Assembly (NCBI GenBank): GCA_020053945.1
Contig: JAGVME010000032.1
Location: 1 to 46,404, forward strand
Direction of reading: 5' to 3'
Source of the DNA: Gammaproteobacteria bacterium
GTDB lineage: Bacteria; Pseudomonadota; Gammaproteobacteria; Ga0077554; Ga007554
Length of the DNA stretch: 46,404 bases
Shown: positions 20,000 through 31,674 of the stretch, piece after piece
Position numbering within the stretch: the first letter of the stretch is position 1
Layout of the letters: every line of letters starts with the position of its first letter
Made by a program: the position numbers and the translations under genes
Notes under the pieces: model-generated
Told to the model about the DNA's origin: nothing
What the model saw: only the letters and a program-made list of their open reading frames with translations
Database searches by the model: none

Positions 20000-20844
20000 G
20001 ATACAGCGCTGTCCCGCAATTTTGCCATGATATCTGAGGTTATCGGTCCATTCACCTGAAAACTGCACCCCGGAATACCCATGATTTCACGCACTGGCCA
20101 TATCCCAATCACGCTATTGCACAAAAATACCTCGTCAGCCGAAATGACCTCTTCTAACGCCAGGGCGGCAATGGCGCTCGGTATACCTGCCGTACGCGCA
20201 TAGGCCAAAATCCAGCTACGCATCACACCCGCCACGCCACACTGCGATACATCCGGTGTTAACAATTGCCCGTTGCGCACCACAAACAGGTTAGTCATCG
20301 TGCCTTCAATTACGTTACCCTGAATATCGAGCATCAAGCCTTCCGGCACATTCGCATCATCCCATTCACTGCGCGCCAGCACCTGTTCCAGGCGATTAAG
20401 ATGTTTGATGCCTGCTAGCGCTGGATTCCACCCCAAACGCGTGGCACACACACGCACTGCCACACCTTCACTCCAGAAAGCCATGGGGTAATCCGGCCAG
20501 GGGTAGAGCGCCAAGATGCGCGTAACCTGAGCGGATAAGGGCGGTGGCGCCCGGTAGCCGCGTCCGCCACTACCACGAGTGATGATGATTTTCAGCACGC
20601 CCTGCGTTTCACCACTACATAACGATAGCGCCTCGCTACGCAGCAGCGCCAGATCAGGCCCAAGGAAATTAGGAAAGTTCAAGCGTTGGCAACTCAACCG
20701 CAAACGCTGCATGTGCCTATCCCACAGCGCAGGCTCACCGTTGATCACCGCAAAAGTTTCAAACAGGCCATCGCCATAGTGCAGACCGCGATCATGCACA
20801 TCAATGCAATTAGCAGGAACGCCATTGACCAGGGTGGTCGTCAC
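19996..20844 (-). CDS. pabC: Aminodeoxychorismate lyase
   Basis: DRGLHYGDGLFET, KHLNRLEQV, EGTMTNLF. Confidence 0.93.
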   Translation of the reverse strand: MTTTLVNGVPANCIDVHDRGLHYGDGLFETFAVINGEPALWDRHMQRLRLSCQRLNFPNFLGPDLALLRSEALSLCSGETQGVLKIIITRGSGGRGYRAPPPLSAQVTRILALYPWPDYPMAFWSEGVAVRVCATRLGWNPALAGIKHLNRLEQVLARSEWDDANVPEGLMLDIQGNVIEGTMTNLFVVRNGQLLTPDVSQCGVAGVMRSWILAYARTAGIPSAIAALALEEVISADEVFLCNSVIGIWPVREIMGIPGCSFQVNGPITSDIMAKLRDSAVS

Positions 20845-22421
20845 CCACTCGCCCCCAGCGCCAACAACAACCCCCGCGCCTTGGCGCGTGTTTCCTGTAA
20901 CTCGGCGTCAGGAACGGAATCCGCCACAATCCCCGCGCCGACACGAAATTGCACATCACCATTTTCCACCAGCATGGTACGAATCAAAATATTCAGGTCC
21001 ATATTTCCATTATGATTCAGGTAACCCATTGCGCCAGTATATGGCCCACGTGGCGTCTGCTCCAGCTCGGCAATGATTTCCATGCAGCGCACTTTGGGGC
21101 AGCCCGTAATGGTGCCACCCGGAAACACCGCGCGTATCACTTGCCCCGGCGTCACCTCAGGGCGTTTAATGCCGCGCACATTGGAAACAATGTGATGCAC
21201 ATGGGCGTACGATTCCAGCACCATCAATTCATCCACCTGCACGCTACCGGGTACGCACACACGACCCAGATCATTACGTTCCAGGTCGATCAGCATCACA
21301 TGCTCGGCACGTTCTTTCGGATGCGCCAGCAACGCCTGTGACAACGCAACATCTTCATCACCCATCCCGCGCGGACGTGTACCGGCAATCGGCCGCACCT
21401 CAATGACATCACCCTGCACCCGCACCAGACGCTCGGGCGACGAACTCAAAATCGCGCTGGCCGCTCCCGGCGTCGTGCCTCCTGCGTCGTACATGGATGT
21501 ACAAGTGTCGCCAGAAGCAGGATACTGGAAGCGATCGGCACTAGCAGAACCCTTCGCTTCCGCTCTTCCCTGTGCGTCGCCCTTATAGAGCGCGACACCC
21601 GCAAACGGCGCGGGATTGTTTTTCCGCAAGCCCTGGTAAAGTTGCATATAACTTACATCAGGCGCCAACGTGGCGCGATATCCCCGCGACAAATTTACCT
21701 GAAACACATCGCCTGCCACGATATATTCCTTAATACGCCGCACACCGTCCAGAAAACGCGTGGGATCATCCTCCTGCAGTGCGCTTATCGGCGCGGCCAC
21801 TTCGGCGTGAGGTTCCACTGTTAAATGCTCAAGGTCATGCGCCATCCTATCGAGCAATACTGCATCTTCAGCCACAAGGAAGGTGCATTGGACATGATGA
21901 TCAACAATCACTGCCGCGGGAATACGTGTAGCAAACGCGATGGGCAGCCGTGATGTGCTGAGCGGCTCCTGCCCGCTTAGCTCCTCCCGCGCTTCCCCGT
22001 GCGTTTCGGCGCCGGCCAATGCCAAGCGCGGCTCAATTTGCGCTGCCAACCCATACCCCAGATAAATAAACCAGCCGCCGGAAAACGGCAACACAGGGTC
22101 CACCTCAGTAGATGACAGCGCCGCCTCATGCGCCCACGCATCGTCCAGTGCCTGCAAAAAATTCGCCGCACCGGGGACGAAGGGAGCTGCGAGCGCCAGA
22201 GAAGACGGGGACCCGGAAGTGGCAGAAACGTGGGACGTGGCATTACCCGCCAACACCAAGGTTTTGCCAGGAAAGGCGAACAGTATGTCATAACGCGCAG
22301 GCAGGATGCCGGGAGCGGCCGACGTACCATGCGCCACACTTTCGAGCAAAAAAGGGTAGCGTTCGGCATGGGCGCCATGCAAACGCAGAAGATCAGGATA
22401 GATAGGTAGTTGACGTATCAC
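20841..22421 (-). CDS. pabB: Aminodeoxychorismate synthase component I, with in-frame repeat insertions
   Basis: FQVNLSR, SSPERL, PIAGTRPR, EHVMLIDLERNDLG, ITGCPK; next to pabC. Confidence 0.88.
   Translation of the reverse strand: MIRQLPIYPDLLRLHGAHAERYPFLLESVAHGTSAAPGILPARYDILFAFPGKTLVLAGNATSHVSATSGSPSSLALAAPFVPGAANFLQALDDAWAHEAALSSTEVDPVLPFSGGWFIYLGYGLAAQIEPRLALAGAETHGEAREELSGQEPLSTSRLPIAFATRIPAAVIVDHHVQCTFLVAEDAVLLDRMAHDLEHLTVEPHAEVAAPISALQEDDPTRFLDGVRRIKEYIVAGDVFQVNLSRGYRATLAPDVSYMQLYQGLRKNNPAPFAGVALYKGDAQGRAEAKGSASADRFQYPASGDTCTSMYDAGGTTPGAASAILSSSPERLVRVQGDVIEVRPIAGTRPRGMGDEDVALSQALLAHPKERAEHVMLIDLERNDLGRVCVPGSVQVDELMVLESYAHVHHIVSNVRGIKRPEVTPGQVIRAVFPGGTITGCPKVRCMEIIAELEQTPRGPYTGAMGYLNHNGNMDLNILIRTMLVENGDVQFRVGAGIVADSVPDAELQETRAKARGLLLALGASG
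21460..21579. repeat. Nested composite of the 51-bp repeat, in frame inside pabB (120 bp)
   Basis: Plus-strand unit at 21485-21535 inside a minus-strand unit; removing it restores YKGSAILSSSPE. Confidence 0.85.
22294..22327 (+). repeat. Partial 51-bp repeat in the pabB 5' region
   Basis: cgcgcaggcaggatgccgggagcggc followed by cgacgtac; encodes SAAPGILPAR. Confidence 0.65.
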
Positions 22422-22471
22422 TTTAAGGGCTTTTCTAACATAGGAAGCATGTTGTCATGTTGCTGGAGGCA

Positions 22472-22564
22472 GCCGCTCCGGCTGCTGCGCCGCCCATGGA
22501 TGGGCCAGTGTCGCCAGAAGCAGGATGCTGGAAGCGACTGGCACTAGCACATCCGTGTACGTCG
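22472..22564. repeat. Nested composite of the 51-bp repeat, leuS-pabB intergenic
   Basis: Plus-strand unit at 22488-22538 inside a partly deleted minus-strand unit. Confidence 0.85.
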
Positions 22565-22628
22565 AGTGTCAAAATACTGAAGAATGGGGGTGATAACAAG
22601 TAATGACGCCTTCCATTGCACAAACAAG

Positions 22629-25176
<2,548 letters not shown>

Positions 25177-28023: not shown

Positions 28024-28973
28024 CAATTCTCCGCCAGCACCATTTCCAGTGCCGCCCTCCAATCGGGAAACGTGATGCCGAAGGTCTGCGCCAGTTGTTC
28101 GTTGCTCAACACTGAATAGGCAGGACGTGCGGCAGGTGTCGGGTAATCGTTGCTGGGAATAGGTTGTAATTGCGTGGTTGCACCCTCCAAAATGGCATTG
28201 GCAAAGCCGTGCCATGATGTTTGACCTGCGCAGCTCATGTGATACACGCCGCTGTGCTGCCGGATATAACCGGTCACACTCGCCGCACAGGGACGTGCAA
28301 GTGTCGCGGAAGGCAGGATGCCGGTAGCGACCGCCGCACCGGCATAATCGGTAGCGTTGTCCCGACCTCGATCCAACCCTTGCGCGACAATTTGCGCCGT
28401 CGCCTCGGCCAGCAGCCGACACCAAGTGGGCGCGCCGACCTGGTCATCAACCACTTTCAACAGTGGCCTTTCACTGGCTAGACGTTGCATGGTCAGCAAA
28501 AAGTTTTTGCCACGCCGTCCATACACCCAGGCGGTGCGCAGAATAAGGTGCGGCACATCCACGGCCTGAATGGCGCGTTCACCCGCCAGCTTGGAGCTGC
28601 CATAAATGTTTTGCGGATTCGGGATATCCTGTTCGGTATAGGGCGTATTTTTGCTGCCATCAAATACATAATCTGTGGAATAGTGTATTAATGCCGCGCC
28701 GAGGCGTTGTGCTTCTTGCGCCAGAATCCCCGGTGCGGTGCCGTTAATCGCCAGCGCCAGTGCCGGCTCGGTTTCAGCTTTATCCACCGCCGTATACGCC
28801 GCCGGGTTGACAATTAAATTCGGCTTTACCTCACCGCAGATTTTTCTTATCGCGTCAGGGTTGGCCAGATCCATGTCGGCCTGCCCCAGCGCGATGACCT
28901 CACCCAAGGTGGACAAGGTGCGTTGCAGTTCCCAGCCTACCTGACCGTTTTTCCCGGTGAGTAAAATTCTCAT
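28023..28973 (-). CDS. rmlD: dTDP-4-dehydrorhamnose reductase, with in-frame repeat insertion
   Basis: GKNGQVG, AAYTAVDKAE, STDYVFDG, YGSSK. Confidence 0.93.
   Translation of the reverse strand: MRILLTGKNGQVGWELQRTLSTLGEVIALGQADMDLANPDAIRKICGEVKPNLIVNPAAYTAVDKAETEPALALAINGTAPGILAQEAQRLGAALIHYSTDYVFDGSKNTPYTEQDIPNPQNIYGSSKLAGERAIQAVDVPHLILRTAWVYGRRGKNFLLTMQRLASERPLLKVVDDQVGAPTWCRLLAEATAQIVAQGLDRGRDNATDYAGAAVATGILPSATLARPCAASVTGYIRQHSGVYHMSCAGQTSWHGFANAILEGATTQLQPIPSNDYPTPAARPAYSVLSNEQLAQTFGITFPDWRAALEMVLAEN
28281..28331 (+). repeat. 51-bp repeat unit in frame inside rmlD
   Basis: cgccgcacagggacgtgcaagtgtcgcggaaggcaggatgccggtagcgac, followed by a repeated cgccgcac. Confidence 0.85.
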
Positions 28974-29529: not shown

Positions 29530-30405
29530 TTAAAAAATCCGTTCTTTCAATAACCCGAGCAAATAGGCGCCATAACCATTCTTTGCCAAGGGCTGCGCCA
29601 AGGCTTCCAATTGGCTGGCGCTGATGTAGCCTTTGCGGTAAGCGATTTCTTCGGGGCAGGCGATCTTGAGTCCCTGACGCTTTTCGATGGTCTGGATAAA
29701 CAGCGATGCTTCCAGTAACGATTCGTGCGTGCCGGTATCCAACCACGCCATGCCGCGCCCCATCACTTGCACATCCAGTAAACCCTGCGTGAGATAGTGA
29801 CGATTGACATCGGTGATTTCGAGTTCACCGCGTGGCGAAGGACGGATGGCGCGGGCAATATCGACGACCTGATTATCATAAAAATACAGGCCTGTGACCG
29901 CATAACGCGATTTCGGAACGGTGGGCTTTTCGACGATGCTGAGGGCTTTGCCAGCCGCATCAAACTCAACGACGCCATAGCGCTCAGGGTCTTGCACCGG
30001 GTAGGCAAAGACGGTGGCGCCCGTTTTCTTTTGCGCGGCGTCCAGCAGTTGTGGCGATAAATCATGGCCGTAGAAAATATTGTCGCCCAACACCAGCGCA
30101 CATGAACCGTCACCAATAAAATCACTGCCAATAATAAATGCCTGTGCGAGGCCATCGGGCGAGGCTTGTACCGCATAGGTGATGCTGAGTCCCCACTGCT
30201 GGCCATCCCCCAACAATTGTTCAAAACGCGGCGTGTCCTGGGGGGTGGAAATGATGAGAATATCGCGGATCCCCGCCAGCATGAGGGTAGTCAGCGGATA
30301 ATAGATCATGGGTTTATCATAAACCGGCAACAATTGCTTGGACACCGCCTGGGTGACGGGATACAAACGGGTGCCGGAACCCCCGGCGAGAATGATGCCT
30401 TTCAT
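29530..30405 (-). CDS. rmlA: Glucose-1-phosphate thymidylyltransferase
   Basis: [34 protein letters not shown]. Confidence 0.96.
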
Positions 30406-31604
30406 GGAATGGCTCCTGGGTTGTGGGGGGTATTTGTGCCGGTTCGGTTGGCATAATTCTGCGCCACCCAGTGCTGGTAATTGCCGCTGGTGACATTCCC
30501 TACCCAAACTTTATTGTCCAGATACCAGCGCACGGTCTTGCGCAAGCCGGTTTCGAAGGTTTCCTGGGGCACCCAGCCCAGGTCGCGCGCGATTTTGCGG
30601 GCATCAATGGCATAACGGCGGTCGTGGCCGGGACGGTCTTTGACGTAGGTGATGAGTGATGCGTGGGGGACATGCGCCGCATCAGGGCTATATTCATCAA
30701 GAAGGGCGCACACGGTATGCACAACATCGAGGTTGGTTTTTTCATTCCAGCCACCAATGTTATAAACCTCGCCAATTTTGCCCTGGGCCAATACGGCACG
30801 GATCGCCGCGCAGTGATCCCCCACATACAACCAGTCGCGGACATTTTGGCCGTCGCCATACACCGGCAAAGGGCGGCCTTGGGTGGCGTTAAGGATCATC
30901 AGGGCAATGAGCTTTTCCGGAAATTGGTACGGGCCGTAGTTGTTGGAGCAGTTGGTGGTTAAGGTGGGCAGGCCGTAAGTGTGGTGATAGGCGCGCACCA
31001 GATGATCGGAAGCGGCCTTGGAAGCGGAGTATGGGCTGTTTGGGGCGTAGGGGGTGGTTTCGCTGAACGGCGGATCCTGCGCGCTTAGGGAGCCGTAAAC
31101 TTCGTCGGTGGACACATGCAGGAAACGGAACGCGGCTTTTTCATCGCCCGCTAAAGTGTTCCAGTAAGCGCGCGCCTCTTCGAGGAGATTAAAAGTGCCT
31201 ACAACATTCGTTTGGATAAAATCGCCGGGGGCGTGGATAGAACGGTCGACATGGCTTTCTGCGGCAAAATTCACTATCGCGCGGGGGCGGTGGGTAGCAA
31301 GTAACTGCCGCACCAACACCCGGTCGCCAATATCACCTTGCACAAAAATATGCCGGGAGTTACCCTGCAGGCTGGTCAGGTTATCCATATTCCCGGCATA
31401 GGTCAGCTTGTCCAGATTCACGACTGAATCCGCCGCACACGGAGGTGCCAGTGGCGTGGAAGGCAGGATGCCGTGAACGGCCGCCGCACACGGAGGTGGC
31501 AGTACTGCCCCAGGCCGGGTGCCGGAAGCGTCCGCCTCCTGGGCGATCCAGTCCAACACAAAATTCGACCCAATAAAGCCTGCACCACCTGTGACTAGAA
31601 TCAT
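30402..31604 (-). CDS. rmlB: dTDP-glucose 4,6-dehydratase, with a 34-aa in-frame repeat insertion
   Basis: [39 protein letters not shown]. Confidence 0.95.
31431..31532 (+). repeat. Two tandem 51-bp repeat units in frame inside rmlB
   Basis: cgccgcacacggaggtg at 31431 and 31482, cgcc again at 31533 (period 51). Confidence 0.88.
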
Positions 31605-31674
31605 CCCCGTTTCCTCCTTTTGTTGAAATTCCATAAACATCCCCTACCCCTACCCTTCAGGCAGGAGGCATATT

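Follow-up and report, generated by a model that had tools for sequence, protein, structure and literature searches.

The question raised by this locus is how an intact gene of an essential pathway came to carry 120 bp of repetitive DNA within the region encoding its catalytic domain. The window, i.e., the whole 46,404-nt stretch of DNA analysed here, is contig JAGVME010000032.1 (C61 below) of a gammaproteobacterial draft genome (GCA_020053945.1, labelled G000), which comprises 2.14 Mb in 155 contigs, has a G+C content of 54% and is 85.6% complete. All of the genomes used here are drafts or metagenome-assembled genomes (MAGs), and twelve genomes form the family set. The gene is a pabB-like open reading frame (ORF) of the aminodeoxychorismate/anthranilate synthase component I family, located on the minus strand at 20841..22421; it encodes 526 aa and is intact, with the 120-bp block 21460-21579 lying in frame inside the chorismate-binding domain. 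Our analysis confirmed that this block consists of two copies of one 51-nt mobile hairpin repeat, one of them inverted within the other.

Three parts make up the block. Positions 21460..21484 (minus strand) hold the 3' part of an outer unit (model positions 27-51). A complete 51-nt inner unit, inverted with respect to the outer one, follows at 21485..21535 (plus strand; nhmmer, model positions 1-50, E = 5.6e-11). The 5' part of the outer unit (model positions 1-26) occupies 21536..21579 (minus strand) together with an 18-nt module at approximately 21548-21565 (boundaries ±2 nt) in the loop of hairpin 1. Once the inner unit is deleted, the flanks 21460-21484 and 21536-21579 rejoin into a single minus-strand unit, just as an earlier, sequence-only reading of this DNA had proposed, and this unit scores 28.1 bits, with the junction after model position 26. 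The description given in that reading, a 51-bp unit nested in another 51-bp unit, however, fits only the inner copy: the outer one measures 69 nt, because the 18-nt module sits in its hairpin 1. The same module is found after model position ~15 in 10 other units. The inner unit belongs to a rare subtype, recognisable by its AGCA..(T/A)CT second hairpin and its CGTC start.

The expectation that removal of all 120 bp would restore the gene was borne out by comparison with relatives. Exactly these bases are missing from all six aligned relatives (four congeneric species and two more from the family), and the empty site reads GCGCTG^(C/T)..., with an ambiguity of no more than 1 nt and no duplication. 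The pabB frame runs open straight across 21460-21579; when residues 282-321 are taken out, the product reads ...YKG|SAILSSSPE, and the alignments with orthologues of the relatives break at residues ~281/322. Pfam places Chorismate_bind at residues 221-514 of the product (E = 1.4e-85; the one product checked among the genes named here), so an essential-pathway enzyme carries 40 repeat-derived residues inside its catalytic domain with the frame still open. Metagenome data consisted of contigs from four runs, all broken inside repeats, and are weak evidence; in one of these contigs (X4, from a relative), the pabB block site is empty, with 123 nt skipped and 3 other letters present instead.

A second composite lies at 22472..22564, in the spacer between leuS and pabB. 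Its outer 3' part (22472..22487, minus strand) is 9 nt shorter than the model and was assigned by eye, as it is too short and divergent for nhmmer. The inner unit (22488..22538, plus strand) was recovered over model positions 1-51 (E = 1.6e-10; 72.5 bits with covariance model R1) and represents the same rare subtype as the inner unit in pabB. The outer 5' part (22539..22564, minus strand; model positions 1-26) gave an nhmmer match to model positions 1-25 at 22564-22540 (E = 0.0078). Here, too, the junction falls after outer position 26, so the claim that both blocks hold a plus-strand unit at the same coordinate of an inverted unit was correct. The diagnostic variants said to be shared between them are likewise real: the two inner units have a 19-nt exact match (21505-21523 and 22508-22526; 0.01 expected), and a 73-nt direct repeat connects the blocks at 84% identity.

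The 51-nt unit is the commonest repeat of the draft, with ~140-160 copies. Iterated nhmmer found 161 at E ≤ 0.01 and 138 at E ≤ 1e-4, and covariance model R1 also counted 138, at most 150 candidates having been scored per genome; the commonest 14-mers of the genome all come from this unit, bar one unrelated word. According to an alignment of 87 units, it consists of two similar halves of ~25 nt, each beginning with CG and containing a short hairpin with GGA in the loop (CA-N-GGA-TG with a 5-bp stem and CA-GGA-TG with a 4-bp stem). In hairpin 1, both bases of pairs 5/18, 6/17 and 7/16 are changed together in 5, 28 and 21, respectively, of the 66 distinct sequences, and a covariation score as high was obtained in none of 500 shuffles. 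Hairpin 2 was fixed by the search pattern in that alignment; in the genome, it takes the forms GGCA..TGCC, AGCA..TGCT and GCGCA..TGCGC. The ends of the unit (CGACG... and ...GCGAC) are not inverted repeats. Of these distinct sequences, 34 of 66 have A at tag position 3; CGAC and CGCC are the prevailing tags, and CGTC is at most a minority form.

Model-complete matches have lengths divisible by three in 109 of 120 cases (51 nt in 77 cases, 66 in nine, 69 in seven, 84 in three and 102 in nine, as well as 57, 117, 153 and 171). Additional length is due to nested units or to modules, either one of 15 nt after position 33 (16 cases) or that of 18 nt in hairpin 1 (10 cases). The 15-nt module is purine-rich, the 18-nt module is related to it, and both are added at hotspots that nested units also use (~21548-21565 in the window, C78:26111-26176 and 25 other units); the module looks as if the 3' end of the unit itself had been copied with stuttering. 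Another abundant word, CAGGCTGTTGAAAA (31 copies), belongs to a different repeat family. We dropped an interpretation in terms of a Neisseria-type uptake sequence, GCCGTCTGAA being present twice.

Nesting of the kind seen in pabB proved to be systematic. Each of 82 contiguous units with enough flank was deleted in silico, and the joined flanks were scanned. A unit spanning the junction appeared in 16 of these 82 cases, as against 2 of 2000 random 51-nt deletions, one of which fell inside a real nest. One of the 16 (4.1 bits, position 11) was discounted; in the 15 credible ones, the rejoined unit is invariably on the opposite strand, and the junction follows position 26 in 4 cases and position 33 in 11. 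Two further nests were recognised by eye, one at 22488 in the window and one at C130:7246, which makes 17 in total: five after position 26 and twelve after position 33. No direct-orientation nest is among them, the test covering either orientation at positions at least 5 nt from the ends of the outer match. A candidate at C56:13161, in which the right flank is a tandem unit, was excluded from the counts.

A third nest site lies in hairpin 1, where a divergent unit is inserted in inverted orientation in seven composites (C43:1680-1781, C155:18907-19008, C19:26711-26810, C6:2037-2136, C152:13096-13196, C18:2952-3068 and C153:8764-8862). The inner unit of these C-type composites has a 3-nt loop in its first hairpin and a 4-nt loop in the second, and the seven copies are nearly identical, representing a second lineage. 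A triple nest forms a 171-nt block on C50, and inverted nests at position 33 are present in unrelated assemblies as well (L026, L057). The earlier reading had asked whether nested inverted pairs share one insertion coordinate; the orientation is always inverted, but the sites are three: 26, 33 and hairpin 1.

The twelve nests after position 33 show three inner/outer combinations, namely A-in-A (3), B-in-A (3) and A-in-B or A-in-C-type (6), A being the main type; the five nests after position 26 contain inner units of three subtypes. Such a mixture of subtypes indicates repeated independent insertions at the same coordinates, in agreement with the hotspot that the earlier reading had put forward as one of two alternatives. 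Inner units outscore their outer partners in 13 of 15 pairs against a model that favours the main type and penalises module-bearing outer units, which is expected if the inner unit is the younger one. The site orthologous to C52:5045 holds an uninterrupted outer unit in the sister species G001; this outer unit has degenerated in both species, and the inner unit in G000 is near consensus. If nests are always inverted and always at fixed positions, they are a footprint of the inserting machinery, telling which strand and which short sequence it used and that the element tolerates internal interruption.

One could turn this picture around and regard the composite as the native full-length element, with the 51-nt singles as its deletion derivatives, much as doublets (REPINs) of repetitive extragenic palindromic (REP) sequences stand to REP singlets. 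The sequence-only reading itself had named a native palindrome as the outcome that would overturn it. Composites do occur as multi-copy blocks in several genomes, orthologous comparisons mostly show a whole composite present or absent instead of intermediates, and the lone outer-only case is formally explicable by precise loss. Nevertheless, contiguous units outnumber nested inner ones here by 86 to 17, and at external loci 114 of 126 model-complete matches are plain 51-mers. Species also differ in the presence of singles and tandem pairs, inner and outer subtypes differ in 9 of the 12 position-33 nests, and, with three junction coordinates, singles would need an exact 51-nt excision at each. 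Moreover, the arrangement is interleaved; the composite is not a palindrome, because its inner and outer units are of different subtypes. We therefore reject this scenario as highly improbable.

The second of the two alternatives, copying of the composite as a block, is also correct, so that both hotspot insertion and a block-copied composite lineage hold. A composite at C124:26120-26239, lying within a 799-aa open frame, matches the pabB block over its full 120 nt at 91% identity and has the same rare inner subtype and the module. Among the 33 matches listed for the pabB-type composite, 21 span both junctions, and these come from 7 of the 12 family genomes; contig C12 of G007, a genome of another genus, carries a 118-nt copy including the 18-nt module. 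Species differ in the presence of entire composites in pabB, at two C78 sites, at L161 and at L156. Most probably, the pabB block arrived as one 120-bp piece, from a lineage that would have begun as a nest.

Could the block have been assembled in place instead, with the outer unit, the inner unit at the hotspot and the 18-nt module added in separate events? Hotspot insertion into resident units demonstrably occurs, and at C78:26111 a 15-nt module was added in place, the site being empty in G004, occupied by a 51-nt unit in G002 and by 66 nt in G000. Metagenome contig X3 (4412 nt) departs inside the block (side 25-35 nt) and allows two placements, one of them equivalent to loss of the inner unit; it was not used as evidence. 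Yet the pabB site is wholly empty in all six relatives and in metagenome contig X4, the same three-part composite exists elsewhere in the genome and in another genus, and a single event is more parsimonious than three at one codon. Stepwise assembly at this site thus appears unlikely to us.

Arrival as a block presupposes mobility, and comparisons at clean empty sites demonstrate that units have inserted precisely, in either orientation and with no target duplication above 1 nt. Clean presence or absence of 51 or 102 nt without duplication was read at L003, L192, L163 and L178, and likewise for both C78 composites. By R1, the genus of our organism carries 138, 38, 137, 138 and 149 units per genome, a second genus 17-63 and a third genus 1 each; outside the family, counts are 0-2 in 18 of the 19 families sampled and 13 in one. 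A 32-nt core is present without mismatch in at least 118 stretches of a species-representative collection, with many Gammaproteobacteria among them; the 80 matches listed correspond to ~57 assemblies, counted by accession prefix. Carriers among these listed matches include Methylomonas, Nitrosomonas eutropha, Thermomonas, Gilvimarinus, a Solemya symbiont and Acidiferrobacterales, along with oddly labelled MAGs (Halobacteria, Phycisphaerae, Klebsiella) for which binning errors are possible. Horizontal spread is indicated by the identity of the core among dozens of distantly related Gammaproteobacteria, and cultivable carriers such as Methylomonas and Nitrosomonas eutropha bring bench tests within reach.

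What directs an incoming unit was approached through the flanks of strict solo units (n = 66). The base 3' of the unit is C in 52 of them, CG follows in 30 (8% expected) and CGNC in 20 (2.5% expected), and T is found at -2 in 32; sequences at clean empty sites varied. At 4 of 7 readable empty sites, the C(R) after the unit belongs to the target. CG is absent from the insertion point of every clean empty site, and the junction AGG^CAGG, at which nests are commonest in the main subtype, also lacks it. Hence, the idea that the element targets a CG in its own sequence survives as a preference for C, CG or CGNC just 3' of the unit, but not as a requirement for CG at the target. Read along the strand of the inner unit, the junction is ...TCCTG^C when the site is position 33 or 26 and ...TTGTG^C when it is in hairpin 1. 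CCTG does not occur on the forward strand of the unit, which accounts for the nests being exclusively inverted. When solo flanks alone were used to build a scoring matrix, it ranked reverse-strand position 26 first in the CAGGAGG variant and reverse-strand position 33 second in the B-type unit.

It might be objected that the fixed coordinates come from selection: insertions would occur anywhere, with survivors only among inverted ones at positions 26 and 33 and in hairpin 1, where, for example, frames are kept open. Most units are translated, so that frame and stop constraints do exist, and the CTAG variant closes frames +1 and -2, as read from the unit sequences. However, the same coordinates are found in the intergenic composite 22472-22564, and frame limits work modulo 3 and cannot pick 3 of 50 positions. 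Nor did the rejoining test return anything elsewhere, at positions at least 5 nt from the ends of the outer match, bar the 4.1-bit match at position 11. Selection as the source of the coordinates is, in our opinion, very unlikely, and we infer that the hotspots reflect insertion preference.

Taken together, the best explanation of the whole, to which we would assign a probability of about 0.72, is a non-autonomous, non-coding mini-element that targets itself at fixed sites and whose composites spread as blocks. Its general site preference would be weak, roughly C-N-T-G/C ^ C-G/A. The reverse strand of the unit would offer favoured sites after TCCTG (33|34, and 26|27 in CAGGAGG variants) and after TTGTG (hairpin 1), so that a resident unit would be a preferred target for an oppositely oriented incoming copy only, giving inverted nests at fixed coordinates. 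As a nest keeps both outer ends intact, the resulting composite would still be mobilisable and may found a lineage of its own.

Several observations weigh against this explanation. Units of one subtype are ~90% alike, so that high composite identity would partly be expected from independent nests too, and block copying is consequently secure only where rare variants are shared, as in the lineage of pabB, C124 and G007. An outer-only intermediate was seen in just 1 of ~7 orthologous comparisons, the one at C52:5045, and the choice between gain in G000 and precise loss from G001 depends on the younger appearance of the inner unit. The matrix is weak, ~1.5% of random genome sites reaching at least 4 bits, and position 33 of A-type units, the commonest nest site, is not in its top six. 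Such a matrix cannot account for ~1 in 6 insertions landing in a unit, and something beyond a short motif would have to focus insertion, for example structure or a protein that occupies the unit beforehand. Repeats break contigs in drafts and MAGs, so copy numbers and array lengths are lower bounds. As to an enzyme, the genome has six Y1-transposase-like genes (C131:2673-3236, C8:7934-8473, C7:35377-35955, C143:25146-25850, C43:146-838 and C29:19879-20613), four above the NCBIfam cut-off for REP-associated tyrosine transposases (RAYT) and two divergent. None of the six is flanked by the 51-nt unit, the nearest unit being ~840 nt from the C43 gene; several are flanked by other low-copy hairpin-like repeats, judging by their flank words. 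The C43-type protein, the one of the six that was profiled across 31 genomes, does not follow unit copy number: it has no match in G009 and G010, with 49 and 47 units, respectively, but does have one in both G006 and G008, with a single unit apiece. Finally, units show no replication-strand bias (53 vs 49, with 17 ambiguous, as judged from local GC skew within ±10 kb, which for a draft genome serves as a proxy), a bias that elements of the IS200/IS605 insertion sequence type usually have.

Our leading guess about the machinery, and a tentative one, is a trans-acting transposase of the single-strand-DNA HUH/Y1 type acting on the hairpins. The idea comes from the resemblance to IS200/IS605-derived elements and REP/RAYT systems, with which the unit shares precise insertion without duplication, the lack of terminal inverted repeats, subterminal hairpins, an apparent short flank preference and tandem or nested growth, as far as the consulted portions of the sources describe them (PMC6006769, PMC2817692, PMC8266576). 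Unlike the non-autonomous IS200/IS605 elements covered there, the 51-nt unit has a weak target motif and comes without a unit-flanked cognate Y1 gene and without replication-strand bias. Because of the missing unit-flanked gene, the absent copy-number tracking and the absent strand bias, we hold this guess to be possible but doubtful.

A different kind of mechanism would do without any dedicated transposase: template switching at hairpin-stalled forks or during repair, helped by 1-4 nt of microhomology, with nests marking switch-prone hairpin sites. The lack of target duplication, of a linked enzyme and of replication-strand bias, together with the common tandem pairs, would suit such a process, as would the microhomology between the 5' end of the unit and its right flank (among 66 solos, 52 have C at +1 and 20 have CGNC). 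It fits less well that boundaries are base-exact across numerous independent events and lack a corresponding left-side microhomology, and that the widely shared 32-nt core and the covarying stems point to recognition by a conserved factor; a simple strand switch at a hairpin should also yield perfect palindromes and not interleaved nests. Template switching on its own is therefore improbable in our view, and we return to the self-targeting mini-element.

The relationship of this element to genes is unusual for a bacterial repeat, as the majority of the family is intragenic. Stop-free spans of at least 150 aa contain 100 of 124 units as compared with 2520 of 3000 random 51-mers, with all six frames in use; the shares being equal, units do not avoid genes. 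Copies whose length is not divisible by three lie outside stop-free spans in 7 of 10 cases. Relative to genes, 56 units are in sense and 44 in antisense orientation here, and 22 and 11, respectively, among the 33 decidable of 109 external loci. A length of 17 codons and largely stop-free frames would allow most copies to persist in genes as in-frame peptide inserts. About a hundred open frames besides pabB thus host the same element. Such 17-residue inserts inflate the apparent diversity of protein families, the units fragment MAG assemblies, and copies can apparently mediate deletions between them. Units were seen at several contig ends (C6:1-98, C65:6-54, C122:37-85, C103:28-74 and C9:70-105), and contigs of G004 break at units.

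The form of the hairpins raises one more possibility. The CsrA consensus obtained by SELEX is RUACARGGAUGU (PMC7652899), and the majority form of hairpin 1 in the 87-unit consensus fits it at 12 of 12 positions, GGA being located in the loop above a short stem; the corresponding sequence in hairpin 2 is CAGGAUG, 25 nt from the hairpin-1 site. A GGA-loop hairpin matching the consensus and the presence of two sites are features shared with the CsrA/RsmA hairpins of CsrB-type RNAs as described there (PMC7652899), known for our unit from its sequence alone. Unlike in those RNAs, unit copies lie on either strand relative to genes, with a weak sense bias (56/44 and 22/11). A search of Rfam over 21300-22700 gave sub-threshold chance matches only (mir-4716, gyrA RNA) and no CsrB/Rsm match. 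The csrA gene is present in 27 of 31 genomes, irrespective of whether they carry units, and is therefore uninformative; in G000, it lies at C5:5655-5810, ~2.2 kb from the nested composite C5:3327-3427. It is tempting to suppose that the unit is a mobile cassette of two putative CsrA/RsmA-type binding hairpins, kept because CsrA binds sense copies, although we consider this quite unlikely. If it were so, the horizontal spread of a repeat would bring dozens of genes, coding regions included, under the Csr network, or the scattered copies would together serve as a CsrA sponge. The number of sites would then be adjusted by self-nesting and tandem growth, in an element carrying regulator-binding sites and not genes.

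How does the unit compare with known repeat systems? Rickettsia palindromic elements (RPEs) are ~100-150 bp long and confined to Rickettsia, and their likeness to the 51-nt unit is by description only; to our knowledge, self-nesting at fixed coordinates has not been described for them. Mycobacterial interspersed repetitive units (MIRUs) are ~50 bp long and occur at dispersed loci in short tandem arrays, by an unknown dispersal mechanism. By description, the 51-nt unit resembles them in length and in its dispersed loci with short tandem arrays, whereas MIRUs are intergenic within operons and restricted to mycobacteria. In contrast to miniature inverted-repeat transposable elements, the unit has unlike ends in place of terminal inverted repeats and leaves no target-site duplication (ambiguity of no more than 1 nt at empty sites). 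It also differs from REPIN/RAYT systems (REPtrons) in that no RAYT gene is flanked by the repeat.

Insertion in frame into genes that stay open is a property common to the unit and RPEs, as the latter are mentioned in the consulted portion of PMC3733652. REPs are characterised in the same portion as single 20-40-bp palindromes with an unpaired GTAG or CGTC tag, mainly extragenic, CGTC families 3 and 4 having 9-bp stems and some REPs being inserted inside other palindromes (PMC3733652). The unit is similar to these GTAG- and CGTC-tagged and intragenic REPs in being a small high-copy hairpin element with some in-frame genic copies and a tag-like CGNC start (CGTC in the pabB copy), and, as with CGTC REPs, no dedicated transposase flanks it (PMC3733652). 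It departs from REPs as portrayed in that source by having two different hairpins (5- and 4-bp stems), no CCA tail and interleaved nests in place of head-to-head dimers, and 81% of the units lie in long open frames instead of extragenic DNA. Its consensus motifs were not found in the supplements of PMC3733652. In the open-access literature, to which the search extended (subscription journals and bioRxiv supplements lying outside its scope), we found no paper printing the 14-nt core motifs on either strand, and word searches on in-frame, intragenic or 51-bp repeats returned nothing specific. Overall, we might conclude that the family consists of apparently undescribed, widely spread REP/RPE-like mini-elements.

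Finally, we would like to comment on the remaining features of the window. On its minus strand, leuS (22629..25085) and the pabC-like and mltG-like genes were named by reading their translations. Relatives carry units of their own at other positions in and around pabB at 9 of the 11 loci scanned, so this gene region has been hit repeatedly. In G000 itself, a remnant of an older unit junction (model positions ~31-51, then the first bases of a unit) was detected by a repeat search at 22299..22328 (plus strand), in the N-terminal region of pabB, with an nhmmer match to model positions 31-49 on L001 (E = 0.004). A unit-like decayed remnant lies at 21960-22013 in pabB, and a metagenome contig of run X4 has 4 other letters in its place. 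In another metagenome contig (likewise weak evidence), the second composite is missing together with the surrounding spacer. A low-depth metagenome contig, X2 (depth 2.9), joins 21503 to 22507, i.e., the two inner units, skipping 1003 bp. This join may represent a deletion by recombination between the two composites in some cells or the arrangement of another strain; if real, it would remove the N-terminal half of pabB. Further along the window, a solo 51-nt unit at 28281..28331 (plus strand) lies within overlapping minus-strand open frames and is missing, with 27 further bases, from two relatives, a 78-nt difference in a variable stretch where the exact empty site is unreadable. A head-to-tail pair of units (2 x 51 nt) at 31431..31532 (plus strand) lies inside ORF 30402..31640 (minus strand); in comparison with G002, ~102 nt of the window remain unmatched there between the flanking alignments, one of which shows the left flank only.

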